DNA from: Botryllus schlosseri
Taxonomy: Eukaryota
DNA: 64,000 bases
Assembly (NCBI GenBank): GCA_051294905.1
Contig: CM119372.1
Coordinates: forward strand, 9,426,001 to 9,490,000
Direction: 5' to 3'
Below, piece by piece: positions 27,929-54,600 of this stretch. Every line of letters begins with the position of its first letter. Position 1 is the stretch's first letter. The notes under the pieces are model-generated. The model ran no database searches. It had not been told where the DNA came from and saw only the letters and a program-made list of their open reading frames with translations. The position numbers and the translations under genes are program-made.

Positions 27929-30188
<2,260 letters not shown>

Positions 30189-34391: not shown

Positions 34392-37300
34392 ATGTTGAAA
34401 TCATTTCGTCAAAGACGTTTGAGACGAGTTCGCAGCCAAGCTCGCACGCCAACTTCCTGTGAAAAGAAAGAAAGCGACTCTCAGGGCAAGTTTGAACACA
34501 CATTCACTCGTAAGCAAAATCACTGGACTTTAGGTGATTCTGAGTTAGAAGATAGCGACATGCCTGCAGTTGCTCAAATTCTTGAGGTAATTTCTGATGA
34601 TTTTCCTCCAATTCCAATCAGTGTGTATTTTACTTTGCATTGTTGGCAATAAATTTGTGATTTCAGCAGCATATATTCTACTATGGACATCTCCGTGTCT
34701 TTCAATTAAAAATGGAAATTGCATGACCTAGTGGTAGCAACAGATGAAGTAAAACGTTTCACTGCTGACATGATTATGAACAATCTATTGCAAATTATGT
34801 GATATGCCAGTTGATTATGGCATAAAACTTTTCTCACCAATCTCAAAGCATAGCACTACGCCATTCAGTCATAAACTCTTTATTATGATTCATTAAATTT
34901 TGCCTGATATATTTCAGCTCAACTGCAAACATGTGTGCATGTCTACAGGCATGTGCCCTCAACATTTAACACCCCAGATCAGAGCTGCTAACATAACACA
35001 CTTACTTCTCAAAAGTAATCGTAACATGAACAACGTTGCTAGCTACTATGACTCTTACTACGACTTCCAATGCAAGCTATACTTGAATATTTCTGCCCAA
35101 ATTGTGAGTCAGGAACATTTTGTTATGACTGTGACTCCTAAGCAGCCAAAAATGTCCTTCCTTAGCATAGGGTTACCATATTTTGGAAATCTGAAAAGAG
35201 GACATTTTTTTCAAAAATTTGAGTTCTGTAACACCGGAGGCACATCCTGAAGAAATGGTAAAAAAAGCTCAACTTTCCGGCCCAGCTCGCGAAATAGCCG
35301 CCGGAGCGTTACTTCAGTGCTGATTTACTGTATCTCGCTCCAATTTCACTCTATATTTCAACAAAATTCTAAAAAAAGAGGAAAAATCTCAAAAAAGAGG
35401 ACATTTGGGCATCCTCCGAGGACACTTTATCATCTTAAAAGAGGACGTATGGTAACCCTATACCTTAGCATCAGCTCGATCCATGATCTGTCTTCGTAAG
35501 AAAAATATAGCATTCGTATCGTATTGTATTTACTAAACTGTATCAAATGATGGATTGCATAATGCCACAAAAAAGTCACTCACAAAACATCCACGGTATC
35601 CTTGTGGAATTACATCGCTCTTGAGATGAAGCTTGCGTGCGTTGTGATGATTTCATTAAACTATCTTATTTTCATGAATGATAGGCATAGTTTTCATTTG
35701 TTCTACCCATTGTGTTTTACTTCTTAGTAGGCCTACTACTTGATGCAACAAATTCACAGAAATCCAATCCAAAATCTCTTTTACATGCCTACAAGGAAGC
35801 ACAGACGGTCAATTGAATCAATTTCTCGGTAAATTTTTAGCGATTGGAAATACTGCCTGGATATGACGCGTACACTGTCGTCGGGTAGTCAAGCATGCAT
35901 TATATTGTCAGTGGACATCGAATTGGTAATTGAGCTGTGACAGTGTGACATTGCCTCTATAAGACATGTTGTACCAGGCTCAGTTGTAACTGGATGGGAT
36001 TGTGTATTATAGGTGCTTGTTGTGGTAATGATTAGACTTGTATCTAGCGCTATCTGGAAAGTTTTACTGTAATGTCTGACATTTCAGGGTATGAGGGATA
36101 CAGACAACTCCTTGATCAACAGGAAACTCCCTAGGGAACTGTTACTCAAGATATTCTCATTTTTGGATATAGTTACACTGTGTAGATGTGCACAGGTGAG
36201 TGAAGTGTATCTTTCTAGAGGTGGAGACACACTGCGCTTGAATTACATATGGTATAAGCTGATGCCCATTTCATATGGTAACTTGAATTTTCATTTGATA
36301 TGTCCTACTTTGAAGAATGTAGATAGCATAGTTTGAAACCTAAAACTGACCTAAATACGGTCTTCATAGTATTAAACCATCTACGATTATGCGTTGAAAC
36401 CAAATAACCGATTTCTCTGGAGACTTGTGTAAGGAATGAGAGTTGTCATAGAAAGTTAATTGTAACAATCCTGTAGGAGTTGATGCGCAAATTTTATGCC
36501 ATCATTTACGTACTCATTTCTGGAGTAACTTGCTGTTGAGCCGCAGTATTGATTTGGATTTTACTTGTACCGTCATGAAGAAATATGCCACTAGTACAGA
36601 AATAACCTAGTTGAGATTGACTTGCTATAATCGCTATGATGATAGTCTTGACGTGGAGTACGAAAATCATGGATCTATAATACCTATAATTATATTGCAA
36701 TTCTGTCGTCACTCGTTATTATTCTAATTTATCCTGAATATTTCATTGTGTGAAATCTTACAAGTGCCTATTGCTCTATTGATTAATTGATATGCACTTA
36801 TGATTAGAAATGACGGCACAGTTTGCTCTGCTCTACTCCATCTCTACTTCAACCAATGGATTCTTATGGTTATGACGATTGTAATGTTTGTGATTTATGG
36901 TAATATATTCTGCCACTACTATCTCGCTACCGTAATCATTTTTCATTGCTTTGGAACACAAGATATCGTTGAGAAGAACTTATTTTTTACCCGCAAAGGC
37001 ATTCCTTTGCTTGCAATATTGCTGTTACTATGACACATTGGGCTGACAAAACCAATGGTAAATATACTGCTACCGCATTCCTTACATTTTGGTATTGGCC
37101 AATTGAAAAACAGCATTGCTCCCACTCAATTCCTAGATTCGCCGGTGCTGTTCGCACTAGTTCATTATATGATAACTGAAAAACTTATGCAGAAAAGTCA
37201 GACTGAGTTACGGTACTACTATATGTGTCAGGTATGCACAGGACCTGGTGATCGTAGTCTTTTAACATCACTACGGTTGTTTGGTCTATGTTTGCTTCAC

Positions 37301-43300: not shown

Positions 43301-46300
43301 TTTAAAGGAACTTATTTTGGTTGGTGTCACGGAGGTAAGATATGTGTTTTTGCGCCTCTGCGCACTTCTCCTACGTTTTCCGAATATTTTTGTTGCCGAG
43401 ACGCACCTCTCTTCGATATGCTGTGAGTTGTTGAAATTTCTAAAATGACTTTTGAATTCTCATCGTTTCAGATATCTGATGCGACTCTGGAAGCTCTGTC
43501 GCAGCACTGTCGCGGTCTACGGGTGCTGAATGTGCAAAAGTGCTCGGTAAGTGCCGAAGCCTATGCCATTTCAATTCCACTTGCCTTATCGTCATCATTT
43601 TATTAAAATTTTTTTCAAATCAACACAACTAGTCTAAAGGGTTAATGCACTTGATAGCGCTACGGCAGGGGCGGGCAACTTCTCCATCCGGCGGGCCGGA
43701 TAGGGAACATGAACATGAGGCGGGTCGGATTCCTGAATTTTTCATGAGTTTAGGGAAAATCCCCTCGTGGGAACGCGTCACAGATCCGTCCATCCTACCC
43801 TGCACTACCCTTTGTACGTACAATTCAGAGACGCACACATTCATGCAGTTGCGAACTATATCTGGATACGTCGACCGATTCACGGGCCAGCCCAAGTAGG
43901 GGATATGAATGTGATCAAAAATCATAATATATTTGGCCGTGCGAAAATGTCTTGCATAAATGAATGAATTTGATCAATGATATTGGTGAGTGTATGAGCA
44001 AGTGGTTTCTTCAAAAATCTACGACACGTATAATTATAATTTTGAACATTGATCATGGCATAAGAATATTCATTCATGAGCTTATCACAGATTATTCACT
44101 TCGAGCGGGTTCATTCTTATTAATTACTAAAAACTCCTGCAACCCAACGGCCATTCTAGTGTATCTATGATACTGTATTCTCATGATCAAGACACGCACG
44201 TAGAGACACTAAATCGTGCGTAGCGAGCGAATTTATTTTTAGTTGTAATCCATCTGTCCGAAAATATGCCACTATCCATGGCCCCCATTCGCCCATGGCC
44301 CCCATTCGCCCATGGCATACGTCAATGCGGTGAACATCAGTTGTATTGGAACGTCGCTTTGTGTTGCTAATGTCCATGCTCGAAAATGTTTGCGCCTAAT
44401 TGCCTGTAGACTGCGACGTTGGCCTCATCATCACGTAAAACCGCAAACTGTCGGCGGGCCGCACAAAATCCCGTCGTATGTTGCCCGCCCCTGTGCTACG
44501 GGCATATAGTTAGCAATTTACCTTGCCTGTGACCATTATATCAGTCCGTGATTAGTATAGTTTCGCTGATGAATACGACACAGTTTCCACTTGACGAAAA
44601 GTAAAAGCAAGTGGCTTGACTTGTTGAACCGGATACAGCTCAAAAACAAAATCACAACTAGTAAGGAAACATGGGTTTAACATTTCAGAAAATTAAATTT
44701 AGTTTCCAGCTTGTAGCCCATGCTCGAATCTACCAAATTATGTGGGCTCGGTAAAAGTTTATTTCAAATCAGAAGCACTGGTGCTATTTTCTTGAAGGAA
44801 TACGCTTCATCTTTTCTGTGATATCGACAAATTATTTCCTGGAAGTCACTTGTTCGAACAACTGTGGTTACTTTGTAAACCGATCGAGAGCCGATGTTCG
44901 AAAAGGTTTTCCATGTCGTAACAGCGTCAACGTCAAACTTGAAGTGGACTTTGATATGCTTTCTAATCCATAACCTGTCATAATTATCGCCTTGCGTCTG
45001 AAGTCATACATATTTTATCGCGATCGACTCTTCCAGGCTATCACCGACGACGGCATTCATCTGATCTGCCAAGGCTGTCGCGAACTGGTGTCCGTGAATT
45101 TGTCGGACATACCGAACCTCCGTGATTATTCCCTGCGATCTCTCTCTCAGCATTGCACCAAACTTCAAACGCTGCAAGTCGCGCATTGCTCGCAGCTCAG
45201 CGACGACGGTTTTGTGACGCTAGCTCAGGTCGGTGTCTTGATGTTTAGATGATATTTGTACTTGGGATGGTGAGAACATTCGGTTGCATTTGTGTTTGGT
45301 ATGGGAACCTCGTTGATTTAGAGAAGGACTTCCTAACCTTTTCTTTATTGCGGACCAGAAAATATTTTGATGCGGTTGCCTGGACCCTCCAACCGTGAAA
45401 TCTAGGAAGCTGACGACTCAGAAAACAGCTCATCACTCTCGCCCAGCCCTCGTCACAGCCTGATTATCAGTTGGAGAGCAATTATTTTTGTTCTTACAGT
45501 CTGTGTGGCTGTTGTGACTTGTGATGGGCTCTTAAAACAAGAGGAAATAAGGACGCAAGTCAAAAATCAGGACATATCTTATAAATAAGGACAATGTAGT
45601 TATATAGTTGTAGTTTCAACATTGGCCTTTCATGGACCCCTTAAAACTAGTCCCAAGGGGTCCCATGGACCCCAGTTTAAGAACACCTGATATAGAGACA
45701 AGCATTCCAAACGAACCCTGGCGGGTTCTACACTGTGAACGTTTTTGTTGTGAAACAATAGAATTTTGTGGATCTTAACAACCGCGGTTGCATTTCTTTG
45801 AACTATAATTCAATGCAAAAACTGAAATTTTGAATCGTGAAAAAATCTACTGATTCCCCGAAATTTTGTTTGAAGCAAGACGTCATTCCGATTACGAGTG
45901 CTAAAATCAGTCGTTTCTGTCGTTGCTACATGCTTGGCAGATCTAGCTATTGCCGATCAAACCGCAGATGGTTGGGTCTGTGCTGCAAGATTACTCAAGG
46001 GCTCTGAAGATTCTCTAAGCAGTCCTTCAATAGTGGGTTGGAATATAGAGGCCCTTGTGCGCCAAACTCGAACCTATCGAGGATTTTGCCATTGAATTGT
46101 AAGATTCTATTTGGTACGACATTTCGCATCCGTCCAACTCATCATCGACATCTTACGAATGCCACCAAGCATTATCTGATAGATTACTGCTATACTATAC
46201 ACCAACAATATATTATACTGACATCGGCAGAACTTCAAGCGCTAGTAAATACTCCATTCTTATCACACAACATGGTTAAATAACAGAAATTCAATAATGA

Positions 46301-49300
46301 TTCCAATCAGCAGAGGCAAAACTGCAATATATATCGCTATGACTAAGCAAAGCATACATATAGGTATGTACTCTATGTCCATTTGAACATAGGCTACAAT
46401 TCTTAGATGGATGTGGGAAGGGGAGTTAACAAAGCTCAAGCGTCCCACCTTCTAATCTGGATTAAACTAATGCGGCATGGTCTTATTTCTGAATGTGACA
46501 GTGAAATGATGTAATTATGTCTAAAACAGCTGCTGCTTACCTCAATTACTGTATACATTTATAGCTTAAGGCTTATGGAAAGGTAGTATTTGGAATGAGC
46601 ATCGTGACGGAATATGACGTCATAGGTTCATGTTCACGTAATTGTGTTTATGCAGGCCAGAGTTCAGGGGTTTGTGCCATCTCTGATTTGTACCTTGGCA
46701 ATTTGTTTGCTTAACATCAAGAGCACTCTTCAAATCTTCTAATTAATGTGTTGCAAGTACGTCTATGAAACGTTGAAATTTGGTCGGCACTTTTTATGAT
46801 GTGCATGTGCAAAGTGCATACTGATGATAATAGCCTGCTCAATGCCACATTATCTTCCGCAGATAGTACTTTTACACTGCTAAAGAGCAATTCAAGGTTA
46901 TTACTCCATTTTCGAAGCTTGGAGAGTGCTATAGCGAAAGTGTAGTACTAGTGTTTCAGGCGGTTATCTCCCGACATGACATAATATCGTTTTGACAATA
47001 TAATAGAAATATTTTCACGTTTATTCAAACCCTCTTTGTTCGGTTGTATTCTATTTCTCCTAAACGACTGCTTCATGCCAATGAAATTTGTTCTTTTCAG
47101 AAATGTGAAGACTTGCGACGGATGGACCTCGAAGACTGCATCCTAGTATCAAATATTACATTAAGAACACTTGCCAGGCACTGCCCTCACCTTTCCGAAT
47201 TGGTAAGTTACTGACCAAGGTGGACGGTGCATGGTAATCGAGTAGATATAAATTTAAAACTCAATTACAAGTAGAAGAAGTGATTTCCTAGACCTGTGTA
47301 AACTACTTGCTATTGAAATCCGACATGGTCACAGGTCAAAAACTGTGCAGTGTTCACCTTTTCATAGCCACATCGTCATAACATTTTGAGAATATTATAT
47401 GCTCTGTGTACTGACTGCAGCAAATAGTATTGAACATAAACATCGTGCCACCTCACAAACCTAGCATTTTCCGGGCCTTATCGTTGGCTAGTTATTTGAA
47501 CTGATTTTTTAAATATTTCAACACATTTCAACTAAATCATTTTCGCAGACATTGTCTCATTGCGAACTAATAACGGACGACGGCATACGTGAACTCGGAC
47601 TAGGAGACTGCGCCACGGAAAACTTGCGGATTATCGAACTCGATAACTGCCCGTTGATCACCGATCTGAGCCTTGACAACTTGGTTACTTGCCAGGTAAC
47701 GGACTCTTCCTGCCGTGTATTTTTTCGCGGATATCAATTTTATTTGTTATTATGCGAATTGATGCTATGTAAGATAAAGCAGGATGAATGAGATATCTCA
47801 AGTATTTCGTTATCGGTATTTAAGTTACTTTTAACTTTACTTAGCATCCAGCTTCTTAATCTGTAGGTCGTGGGTTCAATCCCCAACCCAGTCAGACCTG
47901 ATACTCGACTGTATAACAACATTGTATAGCATAGAGCAGTGATTCTCAACCGGGGGTCCGCGGACTCCTGGGGGTTTGCGAAGCATTTTCAGAGGGTCCG
48001 CGAAACCATTAAATTTACAAAATGACTGATAACCAATTTGTGACTTTTTTAAATTAGGGATATCACGAAGCAGTTTCGCTTCAAAATTGCTAATGATTCA
48101 GTAAGCACATCAACAGAATGGCCAAATGAGATTAAAAATCCTACTTTGCAAACTCATTTTTACTGCCAATAGCCTACTGATACAAACACATTGCTGTTAA
48201 AAGATGTTTAGTTGAGTTTGTTGGAAATGGTTTTTCTAGTCTGTCTTGAAAAAGTGATTACAACCTCATTACAGAATCCATTTTCTTCTGTTACATGCAT
48301 AACCACTATTCCAGAATATCTTGAAGATGAGCTGCTATATGAAAATAACTATCTGGACTAGATACCTTCATTGAAAAATCTGTTTCTCAGTTTTGGTGCC
48401 ATATTTGTTGCGACTGTGCTCAAAGGTGTTGTCGGAAACGTCAGCCGTTAATATTATACATTCGCCGCCACTGTACCTTTGTGGAAATAGATTTTTGGCA
48501 CTTGTTCATATCAAATCGAACGTGTGAATTTTCATGACAGGACCAAATATTTCAAGACATAAGAAATTCAGCTGCAGTAGTCTGTTCGAAATAATGAAAG
48601 TCTACCCATATTTCTGCATATGGTATGATATTATTTTCAAGAACGGTCGTTTCGTTGCTGTTTATCACTAGCCTTGAGTTGGGGGGTAGGGTCCGCGAGG
48701 ACAGAAAGGTCGAGAACCACTGGCATAGAGAGTAAAAGGGCGGTTCCTTCTCATCTCCATCGTCAAAGCATCTCGACTGCCTGCCGCCCAAGCGAACATG
48801 GTCAATTTACCAATCGTTTTTAGGGCCGTGTCAAGCTAGAATAGCAATTCTGGCGTTAAGTCCGGTAGCTAATTCCTGGTCTCATTATATCTTGCAGAAT
48901 CTTGAGCGTATTGAACTTTACGATTGTCAATTGATTACAAGAGGTGGTATCAAGCGCCTTAAGGTAGGGGATGGTTTTGTGTTGATTTTTGGCGATTTCT
49001 AAGCGAAATGCCGTTTCGTGATATTTGAAATTCTGCATTCTTCGGTGATGTCTGACGGGCGGATTGCGCCTCTATGATCGCCTGTGTCTTGTGGCCGTTT
49101 TATTGAGCTGTGTTGCAACTCGCAATATCATTGAGACTGCATGGGTGTCGACCGATATTTTTCAATGCTATTTTAGGTCGCTTGTGTTTGACAATGTATT
49201 GCATTTACTATGTTTTGTATTTACCGCTCGACTAGAAAACCTTGTTATGCTTTTGTGCGGTGTGCATTTTTGAAAACTCTTGCTGTTGCCAATGAACAGC

Positions 49301-51666
49301 ATATTCATGTTGAAATGAACCCGAATATTTTCAGCTGACACTGGTCAGGGTAATAGTCAGCGACTAGTAGAGAATTGGAAAGAACATTGTCTTATCACAA
49401 AATGAAGTCACCTGCATGAAATTTTCAATAATAGGGTGGAAGAGAGAACGCTCAAGCTTAGTGTACTATTTTTAGATGGTACACGAACTCCCGACAATTG
49501 TATATTGAAGTCCTGTATCCCCAAGAAGCACGATGTTTCTTGTTATTTTTCCAACTTGAGTTTTGAATATATTGAATATTGATCGGATTTACTGCTGTTA
49601 TTGTTATCTTAATTAAACGCGAAAACTTCTAGCGACCTGAATGGATACTTGTCTTGAACAAATATCTGCTCGCATGCATTTGTCAATCCTTTAATTCTCT
49701 GAGCTTGTTTTCGGTGAGTGTATAATAATCTTTGCATTGTTTGCTTGCATGTATTTCATCTATTGATGGTATCAAATGGTGTTACATACTCGGTGGCTGA
49801 TTGTTTGAATCTCTAACGTATTCATTGGATTCTCCGTGGTCCCCGGAACTGCCAAGTTAATTTAACTGTTAGGTGTCGGGTGGGATCTGATGTAAATTGC
49901 TGCACTCTTTTCGTTTATATCAGGGGTTTCCAACCTGGGGCTATAAGCCTTTTTCAGGGGGGGATTAAAAAATTTACTATCTCCTAGTCTACTCGACCAT
50001 AACAAAAGAGATTATTTAAAATACTGTTTGGGCAATAAGATAGGCCTGCTTCTTCATCTTGACTGTACTTTCTTGGTTTTACAATGGCTGCCCTTGCTAA
50101 AAGAAGGAGGTATGATGAAAGTTTTCTTGAGCTTTGCAAAGCTATCGTGTTCATTGGGGGCATTTATATCATATCATTCTAACCCGGTTACTGTATAAAC
50201 CAGTTTCAAAAGTTTTAAAAAAATTGGGGAGGGGGTGCTATTGATTTTTGACAATTTTCAAGAGGGCCTCTGTGTAAAAAAGGTTGGGAGCCCATGGTTT
50301 ATATCATGATAATTTCATCGGTTGCGTCGTTACATCGCTGACGTTGGTTCTCTACGTTTTTATTTCATGTGCACGACCGGACCCTTCACGTCGGACACGA
50401 AACAAATTTCAACAATGATTGCACGCTCGTCTCGGTTACTCACACTTGATTTGTAACATGCATGAATGTCGCTGTATATTTTTTTGCCGATCGTAGAACA
50501 ATCTGAAAAACGTCGATGTGAAAATTTACTTCACCCCGCCGACCCCGGTATCTGTACCTGACGCTGACCCGGTGGTGGAGGTTCAGCCCGAGTGGCCCGG
50601 CAACTGCTGCTGTTGCCGGGTTTCGTGAAGTCGTTTTGAGACATCTCAATTTCAAGCGAGATGACATTGTTTACTTCCCTTACGTTGAAGGCGCATTCTT
50701 GTATGCGTTGTTTGTAGTAACTTTCCCATATGCATCAGTTTGAAAACTTGTAAGGGATTTGTCCAATCGAGATTTTAGAAGTTTGTTTTGCACTGATTTC
50801 ATGATTTTTCCACCTTTGATATCATTTCGATTGCGTCGAAACTCTGTTATTTTTGTTGCTGGAGCTAGATTCAAATATTCTTGCACTGTTGATTGAAATA
50901 TGTTCGCTTAATCATATCATATGTGATTTGTATCGAAGTGAAACGCTTGCCATCCAGCAATGGTAGTAAATACATCAATGTTTGCGTGACTTGACCTTTA
51001 TCACTCACATTAATGTTATTATATTGCATACCAATTTTATGGGTATTGGTCAGGATGGTTCAAATATACAAAAGATAGATGTGACTTGTGAGTCTAAATT
51101 CTGGCATGCTTCAATCCTCGCTTATAACTTGCAATGTGTATTGTGCATGTTCTGATTAATTTTAATGAAATTTGATAATGTATGACAATGACCTGGATGC
51201 GATAATCCACCATGGTGACATTAATTTAATGGCTTTGTCTTTCATAATTGCTTGAATGGCGCTCGTGCTGCTGATCATTTCATCGCCGTTGTTTTCTTTC
51301 TGCATACTGTGTGTAAATAATCATGCTGCTCTTTAACATATTTTGCGTTTGATGCAAGTGCGCGCTTCCATGTCTATCTTTTGTTTTACCGAACAATCAC
51401 CAGTCTTTTATTGAATGTGCATTTGGCACGGCTGCTGTTTCGCGATACATTGCTGCGAAAGTCGAACATTTTTGCGCTGTGCTCTTCTCAGTTTAGTACG
51501 TTTTTTTGCCATTGATCGTTCTGTAACTCCGTTGCATCCTCAGAACCATCTGCCACGTCTTCGCGTCCACGCGTACTTTGCTCCGATATCTCCCCGCGAG
51601 TCGGTAGAAATTCGGCATCATCACGGCCGACGGAGAAGATACTGCCGATGCTGCACCATCTTGTGA
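34392..51666 (+). CDS. FBXL20: F-box/LRR-repeat protein FBXL2/FBXL20 orthologue
   Basis: Exons 34392-34586 (non-conserved N-terminus, less certain), 36088-36195, 37575-37658, 38373-38536, 39427-39522, 43208-43334, 43472-43546, 45037-45228, 47101-47202, 47549-47695, 48898-48963, 51544-51666. All GT-AG and phase-compatible. F-box LPRELLLKIFSFLDIVTLCRCAQVSKSWNQLALDGSNWQ, Cys-containing LRRs, C-terminus VHAYFAP...YCRCCTIL*. Confidence 0.93.
35168..35460. mobile_element. hAT (Blackjack-like) MITE, copy 2
   Basis: Same TIR and body as 18885-19267; flanking repeat CCTTAGCA. Confidence 0.9.
41111..42393 (+). mobile_element. hAT deletion derivative with dimerisation-domain relic
   Basis: TSD CATGAGAG/CATGAGGG; CCGGTTAACCGG and ATCCGGAT subterminal motifs; 42031-42150 encodes LTIQPTSVEAERALNARGLFVTKFRSRLQDAAIDALCFIR (hAT C-terminal TSV..ER.F motif). 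Confidence 0.85.
43666..44493. mobile_element. hAT (Buster-type) MITE
   Basis: TIR CAGGGGCGGGCAAC; TSD CGCTACGG/TGCTACGG. Confidence 0.88.
47937..48722 (+). mobile_element. hAT (Charlie/Buster-type) deletion derivative
   Basis: TIR CAGTG(A/G)TTCTC(A/G)ACC; perfect TSD GCATAGAG; degraded transposase C-terminal relics (LQNPF..., YLCG..., ALVHIKS). Confidence 0.88.
49921..50296 (+). mobile_element. hAT (Charlie-type) MITE
   Basis: Imperfect TIRs CAGGGGTTTCCAACC / GGTTGGGAGCCCATG; perfect TSD GTTTATAT; N-terminal relic MAALAKRRRYDESFLE. Confidence 0.85.
50497..50628 (+). CDS. FBXL20: Alternative terminal exon of FBXL2/20 (CRVS isoform)
   Basis: Acceptor TTTTTTTGCCGATCGTAG|; phase 0 like the donor at 48963; NNLKNVDVKIYFTPPTPVSVPDADPVVEVQPEWPGNCCCCRVS* aligns with the canonical last exon NHLPRLRVHAYFAPISP... 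and ends in a CaaX box. Confidence 0.78.
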   Translation, partial: NNLKNVDVKIYFTPPTPVSVPDADPVVEVQPEWPGNCCCCRVS

Positions 51667-54600
51667 CGACTCGATGATTCGGAGTTGATATTACAGATTA
51701 CAACTAGTGGCGTTATCGAAAATTGATTTTACGCATCGTATTGCGTTGCTACGCACTGATGTTGAGCTTTGTTTATGTATTTTGCGTGACGATGACACGA
51801 TTCGAGTTTACCATTTTAAGTCTTGTGGCCTTACCAGGTCTTTTGCTTTCAATATTCCTGACGCGATTTGACTCGGGATCAAGTTTACAGTCTTGATTGT
51901 TCTCTGGGGCTATCATGTGCACTCTGTGATTACTGCCGATAAGACAGTTGGTTGAGTTTCCTTGCAATTTTGCGTGCGGAGTACTTGCTAAATTGTGCAA
52001 GCCCAGTATTTAGTTGTTTTCAAGCCTTTCATTGTACTCTTCTTTTATACTCCTTGTTAACTTCGCTGCATCGACTCAATCGTGATATCATTTTGTCTTT
52101 GGATGAAATAATGTAATGCAAGATAAGGCTTTGTTATCGTGTCCTTAATGTTACAACCGATTCGGACAATGAATTTTGAATAATGGAAGATTTTGTTTAG
52201 TGTCCTTGCTACTGCTATATTGAATGAATTCACTAGCAGGTTCACAAGCAGTTATTTAACCTTTTGTTGCATGACACATTTCTTGAAGCAATATTGTGCC
52301 ATTCTTTGTTTCGAGCGGTCGCTCGTAACTACTATTATAATCTGGTACAAGCCTGTGATTCCACTTCGGTGAAGTTTGGGACGTCAATTATATTTTGACT
52401 TAGTTTTGATGTCCTTTGGCATTCTGATCAGTTTTACCTTGCTGCCACTGTTGAGCCCCGCAGTATTGTAGTGTCAAATTGCTACTTGGTTTGCCTCGAG
52501 TAGTAAACCATGCGTTACATATCTTCTGCGTTTGTTTTCGTGCACTGATATGATAGCCAGTGTATAACAGACTTTTGCTCTTGCACGGTAACTCCACAAT
52601 TTAGATATAACTCGGTTTCAACTTGCAAGTTGGGTAGGATGCTTTAAATAATGAAAGACAACTACCGGATGGCTGGTGTAGCGATTAGTATGTAGCGCGA
52701 CTCAATTCTCAAAGTCAAGACCTGAATGCAACTGTGAAATTATTAGATTTAAGGTTTCCTTAGTGTAGGTCACTATAGCTGAATCCCGTGTATTGCTGAC
52801 TACCAAATATGCATCTAGGGGGATTGGGTTCGGTATAGCAAAGATCTAGACTATTATGACAGTTATCATACTGTCGGGAAACTTTCACAGCCCACAAGGG
52901 TCATTTCCTGTGTGCAGCGGCCTATATTGGTACCAGTATGTATTTGTTGACATTATGTTTACATGTGAGATGTGGCACACATCCAGTGGATTTGTATGTA
53001 TCTATATTTGTCGGTAGTTTGTTGCTGTACTATTGGTAATCTGATTCCATGTGTCCTGTGAAGAATCTTTCCATTAATACAATGTTTACAGTTGTGGTAT
53101 GGTAGATTGGATGCAGACTGGTGGGTAATTCTGACGCGAGCCAGTGGTGATGTCTGTCAGTCATTCAAGCGGATGTTATTAAATGCCCATTGACTTTGAG
53201 TTAGTTTTATGTTGCATTCATTCAGTTCTTCCAATTTCCATGTCTTAGTCTATATTTGAATTACTTGCTTCATAACTATCTCTGTATAGGTACTTCTTAG
53301 GTTTTGCGCAGTACAAATTTTCAGCACATACATACAGTGGTGTCGATTTCAAGGATCCTACTCCAGTTGATCTCGACTAGTAGATATTATGCTCGGAAAT
53401 TTACTGAAAGTAACTGGAAGTTACGAATGATTAAAGGGGTCGTGCAAGAAAAATCGTTACTTGACGTGATGACATAACCATCTGCACGTAGCAGATGAAA
53501 ATGATCTGTTTATTTCTCATCCACGCTGATCAGCAATCCCTTGAAATAGTGGTATCATATAGCAAAGATTCCTTGGCTTCCCAATCACAAAGATGCATGG
53601 TTTGAAGTTCCAGCTACAATGGCGTTTGAAAGGAATGCTGCTGGAAACACTGACTGTGACACTGTTAGGTAACTTGGGACCCTTGATTATCCCATGACTG
53701 TAAATGCTTCTCTGTCGAAATTGGTTTTAATTTCGTTTTGATTTGACTTATTTCGGTCATCAGTGCACAACTAAATAATAGGCATGCACATTGAATGAAC
53801 AACGGTAACTGAAGATAACATAAAATGACAAGTCATTGAAATGAAATGGTATGTGATGCAGGCAAAGTCGAATAGTGGTCTGGTAAACTTAAACACTGAC
53901 TAGTGTATTAAATAAATTCTGTTTGTGTTTCAAGTTGATTGTGGGGTGAATATGCGAGATACTGTTCCTCAGTCATGGTCCGTCGCACTCGAGGACCGAT
54001 AAGCCAACATAACTATTTGATTTCATTCATTGATTATTATCTGGTCTTTTAAAATGATACATGATCGCAAGATTACAGAAAGAAAAGGGTATCATAGGGA
54101 TGCAATTGAAGTCCAGTAATTAGAAACTTAAGACACATTTGCGAGAGCTATTTCTGTACTGCCTACTCCTGGCACAAGCGCACGTTAGTTTCAGATCTGT
54201 GTGGCAATGAGGACTAGAGCAACATGATAGTAATCCCTTATGAGAAAGAGTTGATCAGACTAATGACATCAGCTGGGCCTGACCAGCAACAATAGGGTGT
54301 CACCAAAACGGAGTTATGCTGATCTAGGGTTGAAATGAATTGGTTGTCTCTATCGCGAGGCACAAAAGCAACAAAAGTGTGAACCGGATGACTCAAATTA
54401 AATGTATTCCGGATAAGCATGAATGGTATTCAATCTGAGACTCTGTTGCCAAATTCCTCAATTACAACTACGTTGACTCGAAAGATCTGATATGATGAAG
54501 CTATCCATTCAAATATAAACACAATTACTATGTCTTCTACACCATGCATTTCAGATTTAATAATGCGGGAACACGATCCATGTAAATGATTGTAATTCTT

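Follow-up and report, generated by a model that had tools for sequence, protein, structure and literature searches.

In a stretch of 64,000 nucleotides (nt) from the Botryllus schlosseri genome (here called the window: GenBank assembly GCA_051294905.1, contig CM119372.1, positions 9,426,001 to 9,490,000 of the forward strand, with all coordinates below counted from its first letter), one F-box/leucine-rich repeat (LRR) gene runs on the + strand from about 36.1 kb to beyond 52.4 kb. The gene is of the FBXL2/20 type, and its last intron holds a second open frame that resembles the terminal coding exon. We call this frame the spare exon and the established terminal exon the canonical one. Three RNA data sets cover the region, all of them shallow. 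X1 and X9 are sets of assembled contigs, which we take as RNA-derived since they are spliced, and such contigs lose rare variants; X24 consists of raw RNA reads, of which about 6% of the run was sampled. The features at the 3' end of the gene are as follows.

48898..48963, + strand: penultimate exon, 22 amino acids (aa), ending in phase 0, spliced to both neighbours in contigs of X1 and X9.
48964..51543, + strand: last intron, 2580 nt, containing the spare exon; joint 48963->51544, GT..AG.
50476..50496, + strand: candidate acceptor of the spare exon, a T-run (tatattttttt) and then gatcgTAG.
50497..50628, + strand: spare (proximal) terminal exon, an open frame of 132 nt (43 codons and a TGA stop) that follows immediately on an AG.
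51544..51666, + strand: canonical (distal) terminal coding exon, ending in RRRRYCRCCTIL and a stop, spliced to 48963 in X1 and X9.

The penultimate exon stops on a codon boundary before GT, and both tail exons are therefore in phase 0. Read in that phase, window positions 50497-50628 translate to NNLKNVDVKIYFTPPTPVSVPDADPVVEVQPEWPGNCCCCRVS followed by a stop, and positions 51544-51666 to NHLPRLRVHAYFAPISPRESVEIRHHHGRRRRYCRCCTIL followed by a stop. The gene ends, in other words, in two homologous exons in tandem, in the same phase and each with its own stop. Three parts can be told apart in the spare exon. A cap-strand motif comes first, followed by a linker that is acidic and rich in proline, and the frame closes with a CCCCRVS end before the stop. 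This end has the form of a CaaX box, with Cys at position -4 (C-R-V-S-stop), the aliphatic residue Val at a2, and Arg at a1. Arg at a1 of a CaaX box is tolerated by farnesyltransferase (FTase). An earlier description of this DNA made from its letters alone, referred to here as the sequence-only reading, had pointed to a GC-rich 132-nt segment in the last intron with an acceptor in phase with the canonical exon. That description is borne out: the GC content is 0.568 (0.70 at third codon positions) against 0.37-0.39 in the flanking intron, the acceptor consists of a T-run and TAG, and the phase matches that of the RNA-confirmed penultimate exon, which ends at 48963. The spare-exon region is also the top 132-nt window for GC among the 12,976 intronic windows of the gene. 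Other GC-rich 132-nt intronic peaks (0.57-0.58) lie in the same gene at about 43657, 44372 and 48672, none of them with a tail-like frame.

The sequence-only reading had further aligned the peptide ending in CCCCRVS-stop with the canonical tail and had taken this to imply exon duplication. We confirmed the translation, and BLASTP aligns the two tails from the very start of both, with 7/17 residues identical (E 5e-4, as a single comparison). The cap motif common to the two reads N-L, V, YF-P, P. A census of the whole window gives a sense of how rare this combination is. Among its 2177 stop-to-stop open reading frames (ORFs) of at least 20 aa, 74 end in CxxX-stop, 12 contain YFxP, and 2 have both; these two are the spare exon and the true last exon, 1 kb apart on the same strand. 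The in-phase acceptor and the homologous start point the same way as the census, and the proposal of an exon duplication stands. A hidden Markov model (HMM) that draws on canonical tails of other organisms (22 in all, the spare exon not among them) places the spare exon 4th of 2183 ORFs at E 0.13, with a colinear match over residues 2 to 41 that is not significant alone. Taken together with an AG, the right phase and a place in the last intron, which makes up about 2% of the search space, the match does become significant; by our estimate the joint chance is below 1e-3.

These numbers also bear on a rival explanation, a chance open frame in a GC-rich intron patch, without homology to the terminal exon. 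Such a frame would be compatible with an E-value of just 0.13 against the window's ORFs and with a DNA similarity to the canonical exon that does not exceed that of shuffled sequences, and GC-rich DNA does tend to be open in several frames. However, chance would have to place one of only two frames with YFxP and CxxX-stop next to the other, which is the true last exon, on the same strand, and would have to put the beginning of the match at residue 1-2 of each exon, next to an AG and in the right phase. We regard this explanation as very improbable.

If the two exons are homologous, the duplication must be old. Their DNA alignment scores 23, where shuffles score 20.6 +/- 2.2 with a maximum of 30, and it is this likeness at shuffle level that implies great age. 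The stretch TTTTTTTGCC..GATCGT, which is shared before both acceptors, was considered as retained intron homology and rejected on the same numbers, its score of 23 lying within the shuffles. The protein tells more than the DNA. The first 17 residues of the spare tail match the canonical tails of other organisms at 8-10 of 17 positions (best L011, a locus from a metagenome contig, 10/17), and are thus closer to foreign canonical tails than to their own canonical exon. What the spare exon retains is L3, V6, V8, Y11, F12, P14, T16 and P17 of the strand and loop, while nothing in the linker can be aligned. To judge from these comparisons, 50497-50628 appears to be a real, old duplicate of the terminal exon, and the case is convincing only because homology, position in the last intron, AG, phase and a CaaX-type end are found together.

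Two other origins for the spare exon were tried and discarded. A repeat or transposon is ruled out, since protein and DNA searches alike find a single copy of it in the 495.5-Mb genome. So is a paralogous donor gene: the FBXL2/20-type gene is single-copy in the assembly, where its conserved exon matches once. An Rfam scan of 48900-51700 returned one chance-level match (E 0.16, far under the gathering score), the other reading frames of the spare exon match no Pfam family, and the spare exon has no match in the PDB at E up to 10.

The pattern of what was kept is informative about the history of the duplicate. Kept structural residues and a Cys-rich CxxX end beside a lost linker look like the footprint of purifying selection over a long time, because function-bearing positions have been preserved while the linker has not, which neutral decay would not leave. 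The GC content, still exon-like within a GC-poor intron, likewise argues against a long-dead sequence, which should have reached intron composition.

The identity of the host gene rests on its upstream exons as well as on its canonical end.

36073..36203, + strand: region of the F-box exon in the FBXL2/20-like gene, with approximate boundaries; it matches Pfam F-box-like PF12937 at E 8.5e-10.
45037..45228, + strand: LRR exon, 64 aa, boundaries predicted; AG and GT in frame.
47549..47695, + strand: LRR exon, 49 aa, RNA-confirmed.

The N-terminal F-box is also matched by PF00646 (Pfam, E 1.3e-7) over 36073-36203, and the ORF translations of this region contain the motif LPRELLLKIFSFLD. The exon at 45037-45228 matches LRR_6 at E 8e-4, below Pfam's cut-off, and a protein search with it returned P0004 only, a 95% identical unspliced ORF on a contig of a related organism. 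The exon at 47549-47695 is better placed. Its joint 47695->48898 (GT..AG) is found in X1 contigs, X9 contigs and 2 raw reads of X24, and 98 homologous proteins (53-76% identity) include some named 'F-box/LRR-repeat protein 20' and 'F-box and leucine-rich repeat protein 2/20'. The encoded protein would be a cysteine-containing LRR solenoid with FBXL2/20 as its nearest named relatives. The canonical exon matches human FBXL2 (PDB 6o60 chain C) over residues 391-424 at E 4.9e-5 and the HMM of canonical tails at E 3.8e-14. It has what characterizes FBXL2/20, namely an extra C-terminal strand, VHAYFAP, and a CRCC-aaX tail; human FBXL2 residues 391-424 show the same order of VHAYFAP, linker and CRCC-xIL. 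Of this C-terminal element of human FBXL2, the spare exon keeps the V-x-x-YF-P core. Behind the canonical exon, the 3' untranslated region (UTR) extends past 52400.

What the tail does in this family makes a second version of it worth attention. Of some 600 E3 ligases, FBXL2 and FBXL20 are the ones with a CaaX box, and their lipid tail sets the membrane compartment in which substrates such as p85beta and IP3R3 are degraded (PMC9988375). Human FBXL2 has one tail, which is palmitoylated on C417 and C419 beside C420, the residue geranylgeranylated by GGTase-III (PMC9988375, PMC9141697). Modification by GGTase-III takes place in vivo and goes via the LRR domain (PMC9141697, PMC7729025). The enzyme recognises the LRR13 pocket and the Ala-Tyr-Phe loop of FBXL2 rather than the CaaX box: the Ala398-Tyr399-Phe400 loop closes the LRR13 pocket, and the PTAR1 subunit clamps the strand and loop, with the CaaX tail disordered (PMC9141697). 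It is the start of the last exon that encodes this extra strand and Tyr-Phe loop.

Under the CaaX rule, X = L favours geranylgeranyl and X = S favours farnesyl, and the sequence-only reading had applied the rule to assign farnesylation to the CRVS end. Because GGTase-III recognises FBXL2 through its LRR domain (PMC9141697), the X = S rule alone does not predict the lipid, and the assignment cannot be upheld in that form. The contrast that had been drawn between the two tails survives in part. The CaaX ends do differ, CRVS against CTIL, but the dichotomy of a farnesyl/palmitoyl tail and a polybasic geranylgeranyl tail does not hold: the canonical tail carries the same C-x-C-C pattern as human FBXL2. 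As far as the sequences tell, the two tails would be distinguished by charge (RRRR vs D/E-rich) and by CaaX class, and not by palmitoylation, because the canonical tail too has the cysteines that are palmitoylated in human FBXL2. Since the spare exon retains the Tyr-Phe loop, binding of GGTase-III to the body of a spare-tail isoform is expected to persist. For the spare tail itself the candidate lipids are farnesyl plus palmitoyl, farnesyl plus geranylgeranyl, or geranylgeranyl alone.

We propose that the spare segment is an ancient tandem duplicate, long under selection, that now acts as an alternative terminal exon, used rarely or under certain conditions. We hold this view tentatively, at a little under an even chance. 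An alternative splice, 48963->50497, would swap the last 40 residues for 43 others. The LRR solenoid would still be closed by the extra C-terminal beta-strand and the Tyr-Phe loop, both kept in the spare tail. In place of the basic linker and CRCC-TIL end there would be a linker that is acidic and rich in proline, with a CCCC-RVS end. Its anchor would probably be farnesyl on the CaaX cysteine, with acylation, or a second prenyl group, on the neighbouring cysteines. The resulting isoform would still be a lipid-anchored SCF receptor, and the changed anchor chemistry and charge would give it a different membrane distribution.

A parallel from outside Botryllus bears on this proposal. With the conserved exon as query, metagenome contigs yielded 13 loci from distant organisms. 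Among those that are genomic and show the last intron, L004, L012 and L014 each carry a single tail exon, and their last intron is short. In three others (L008, L009 and L010), a single penultimate exon is followed by a pair of intact tail exons, 765 nt apart, each behind cag and in phase 0.

13118-13231 of L008: proximal tail exon, YRLPKLEVHAYFPSVTPPPSAGPPRRRLCPDCRCTIL and a stop; same in L009 and L010.
13883-14002 of L008: distal (canonical) tail exon, YALPNIEIHAYFAPPSPTPSVANGHQGGRRRYCRCCVIL and a stop; same in L009 and L010.

The three loci belong to one species, with 9 mismatches in 6382 aligned bases and none in exons. Comparing L008 with L009 and L010 was considered as a test of exon constraint and set aside as uninformative for that reason. 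As in the window, a diverged proximal and a canonical distal tail exon stand 0.8-1.0 kb apart, intact and in phase 0. The differences are that both tails of the metagenome gene are basic and end in L (CTIL and CVIL), and that the gene is known from DNA alone. The proximal exons of the window and of L008 show no special likeness, and a common origin for the two is therefore not established. Even so, these sequences suggest that old, diverged, intact second tail exons persist in at least two lineages. That both lineages' second exons are dead relics caught before decay seems unlikely a priori.

The evidence from RNA, variation, processing signals and protein libraries nevertheless weighs against a living exon. 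The sequence-only reading had proposed that terminal-exon choice selects between the tails and had suggested comparing the junctions 48963->50497 and 48963->51544. The canonical joint is present in X1 (depth 19) and X9 (depth 16), whereas the spare joint was found in none of the three data sets (X1, X9, X24), shallow as they are, and so far the proposed use has found no confirmation there. No joint leaves the spare-exon region in any run with data either. A fourth run, X21, placed no reads on the region and carries no weight here. In the sampled part of X24, depth is 1-6 on 51575-52400 and 0 on 50406-51407; we estimate that at this depth a spare-tail isoform below about 20-30% would be missed. 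In X1 the spare exon is covered no more deeply than the intron, with a depth of 4.4-6.3 that equals that of its flanks, where the canonical exon has 43, and X1 contigs run unspliced through the spare acceptor (50384-50563) and beyond the spare stop (50552-51117). Another X1 contig (51203-51571) runs unspliced through the canonical acceptor. The spare exon thus shows no detectable splicing in three data sets of low power.

The X1 coverage of this intron is uneven in itself. Five low-depth contigs (4.4-10.6) span 49522-51571, and over these distal 2 kb of the last intron the depth is 3-12, whereas it is about 1 on the unique parts of the preceding intron and 0 at 49070-49236. This distribution does not fit plain pre-mRNA or DNA carry-over, and behind it might lie a transcript from within the intron or from the antisense strand, present at low level, or an intron that is retained in part.

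Variation and processing signals point in the same direction as the RNA. The X1 haplotype differs from the window at 2/132 spare-exon positions (1.5%), both differences changing an amino acid: 50533 A>C (T13P) and 50599 G>A (G35S). One of the two comes from a contig of depth below 5 and is possibly an error. Elsewhere X1 differs at 17 positions in about 1748 nt of covered intron and at 0 in 333 nt of constitutive exon, the latter from three pieces (47549-47690, 48895-48961 and 51544-51666). The variant density of the spare exon is intron-like and looks like relaxed constraint, although the numbers are tiny. X1 also carries a 1-nt deletion in the T-run of the acceptor (50479) and T>A at 50491, both possibly errors at a contig depth of 4.4. 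The spare acceptor is the only TAG in the gene, the other 10 listed acceptors being cag (38374 one base off). Between the spare stop and the canonical exon (50629-51543, 915 nt) there is neither AATAAA nor ATTAAA, a weak test given that the two hexamers occur at 1.25 per kb in the window, so that roughly one in three stretches of this length would have neither. Variant poly(A) hexamers do occur there: AGTAAA at 50965, AATACA at 50969, AATATA at 51063 and AATGAA at 51164. No donor with at least 7/9 consensus matches occurs in 50560-50900, that is, to about 270 nt past the stop. The CpG observed/expected ratio of the spare exon, 1.03, is like that of introns, where the gene's exons have 1.3-1.5.

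The same holds for the search for homologues of the spare tail. It is absent among 5.8 billion protein cluster representatives (9 candidates, none at E up to 10), and HMMER found 0 matches to it at E up to 0.001 among 1.84 billion representatives; both libraries merge near-identical isoforms, which makes these blank results weak. All 24 spliced homologue tails that we collected are of the CRCC/CKCC-xxL/I/V type (18 from homologues of the exon 47549-47695 and 6 from loci; 22 distinct; mostly from arthropods and nematodes).

Where an upstream exon carries its own stop ahead of the canonical one, a regulatory role also comes to mind. On this account the spare exon would be a cassette included ahead of the canonical last exon in the manner of KRAS exon 4A, mainly for an early stop or mRNA decay, and its tail would be incidental. 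Its position and its own stop suit such a role, and so does the lack of a canonical poly(A) signal, which leaves a terminal exon in need of a variant such as AGTAAA at 50965. However, a cassette would need a way out, and the region offers neither a good donor nor a joint leaving it in any run; moreover, a pure decay switch needs neither a cap motif nor a CaaX-type end. We consider a regulatory cassette quite improbable.

The more serious competitor to a living exon is a recently silenced relic, a long-working alternative terminal exon that is no longer spliced in this lineage and has not yet decayed. In its favour are the missing joint to 50497, the unspliced coverage at intron level, the intron-like variant density with both variants amino-acid-changing, the weak TAG acceptor followed by neither a canonical poly(A) signal nor a good donor, the intron-like CpG ratio, and the tail's absence from the protein libraries searched. 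Yet the frame, the Tyr-Phe cap motif, the four cysteines and the CxxX-stop are all intact, with GC of 0.57 in a background of 0.38. The loss would have to be recent relative to the age of the exon, a narrow window a priori. RNA was also sampled thinly, through two sets of contigs, which lose rare variants, and 6% of a single run, and a second lineage likewise keeps two intact tails. We see a silenced relic as a realistic possibility that falls somewhat short of even. In favour of the living exon stand the footprint of selection, a composition like that of exons, an undamaged frame with its motifs and the parallel in L008-L010; against it stand the missing junction in three shallow data sets, the intron-like variation and CpG and the weak processing signals.

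A rarely used alternative terminal exon of this kind would have well-known counterparts. The sequence-only reading had likened the pair to the alternative last exons of KRAS and CDC42, and the analogy is apt, both systems being documented. KRAS 4A and 4B arise from alternative CaaX-bearing last exons born of exon duplication (PMC9882654). Like the spare and canonical exons, they are homologous tandem last exons that each encode a domain end, a flexible tail and a CaaX box, each with its own second membrane signal, and the upstream exon has its own stop, as here (PMC9882654). They differ in that both forms are documented in RNA and protein and conserved for more than 450 million years (PMC9882654). 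The Botryllus tails also differ from each other in the class of X (S vs L), unlike the KRAS pair. Both KRAS tails end in M and are farnesylated. In CDC42, the ubiquitous and brain isoforms use alternative last exons that bring two lipidations, 3' UTRs and localisations, as proposed here, one being a CaaX prenyl form and the other a CCaX prenyl/palmitoyl form (bioRxiv 10.1101/366369, PMC10883850). CDC42 is a small GTPase with both isoforms well documented, whereas the case here concerns a candidate tail of an SCF substrate receptor.

Alternative CaaX-bearing last exons are thus known already from KRAS and CDC42, and what would be new, if real, is a candidate FBXL2/20 case. The sequence-only reading knew of no two-tail FBXL2/20, and we can extend this: none of the papers found by a full-text search on FBXL2 and FBXL20, which did not reach subscription papers or isoform database records, mentions a second terminal exon, though this does not prove that none has been described.

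A further comparison leads to a bolder version of the proposal. In Ykt6, which ends in CC-AIM, the CaaX cysteine, with an X of the FTase class, is farnesylated and GGTase-III then geranylgeranylates the preceding cysteine (PMC9141697, PMC12001115). The spare tail, CC-RVS, resembles CC-AIM in its letters, and the LRR domain of FBXL2 is the other known GGTase-III client. In this version, FBXL2/20 genes of at least two invertebrate lineages would keep a second terminal exon with which one SCF receptor switches anchors, and the spare CCCC-RVS tail would be Ykt6-like, farnesylated by FTase and then geranylgeranylated by LRR-docked GGTase-III, as opposed to the basic CRCC-TIL tail with its GGTase-III geranylgeranyl and palmitoyl groups. 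Taken as a whole we think this quite unlikely. If true, it would mean a doubly prenylated ubiquitin-ligase receptor chosen by splicing.

The proposal of a living alternative exon matters in its plainer form too. A splice-selected second tail would make the compartment of an SCF ligase settable at the RNA level, as for KRAS and CDC42, and it would offer a natural tail pair on one LRR body with which to ask how FTase, GGTase-I and GGTase-III share a substrate. Should the exon prove silent instead, it would be a clear case of an alternative exon that was maintained for long and has been caught soon after its loss. As long as neither junction reads nor orthologous exons are known, the claim of use follows from sequence logic.

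Two further observations concern the surroundings of the spare exon. The last intron also contains a dispersed repeat of about 96 nt at window positions 49295-49390 (+ strand). It has 1556 first-look candidates in its own genome; among the 40 that were scored, 39 are near full-length matches of 90-95% identity on many contigs, and 1 consists of two partial matches (81-92%). It matches no Rfam family. The X1 RNA depth on it reaches 21,379, with flanks that vary among reads, and it is probably a SINE- or MITE-like element (short interspersed nuclear element or miniature inverted-repeat transposable element) that many transcripts contain. An actin gene of several exons, recognised from its ORF translations, lies upstream of the F-box gene at 27929-30188 on the + strand.

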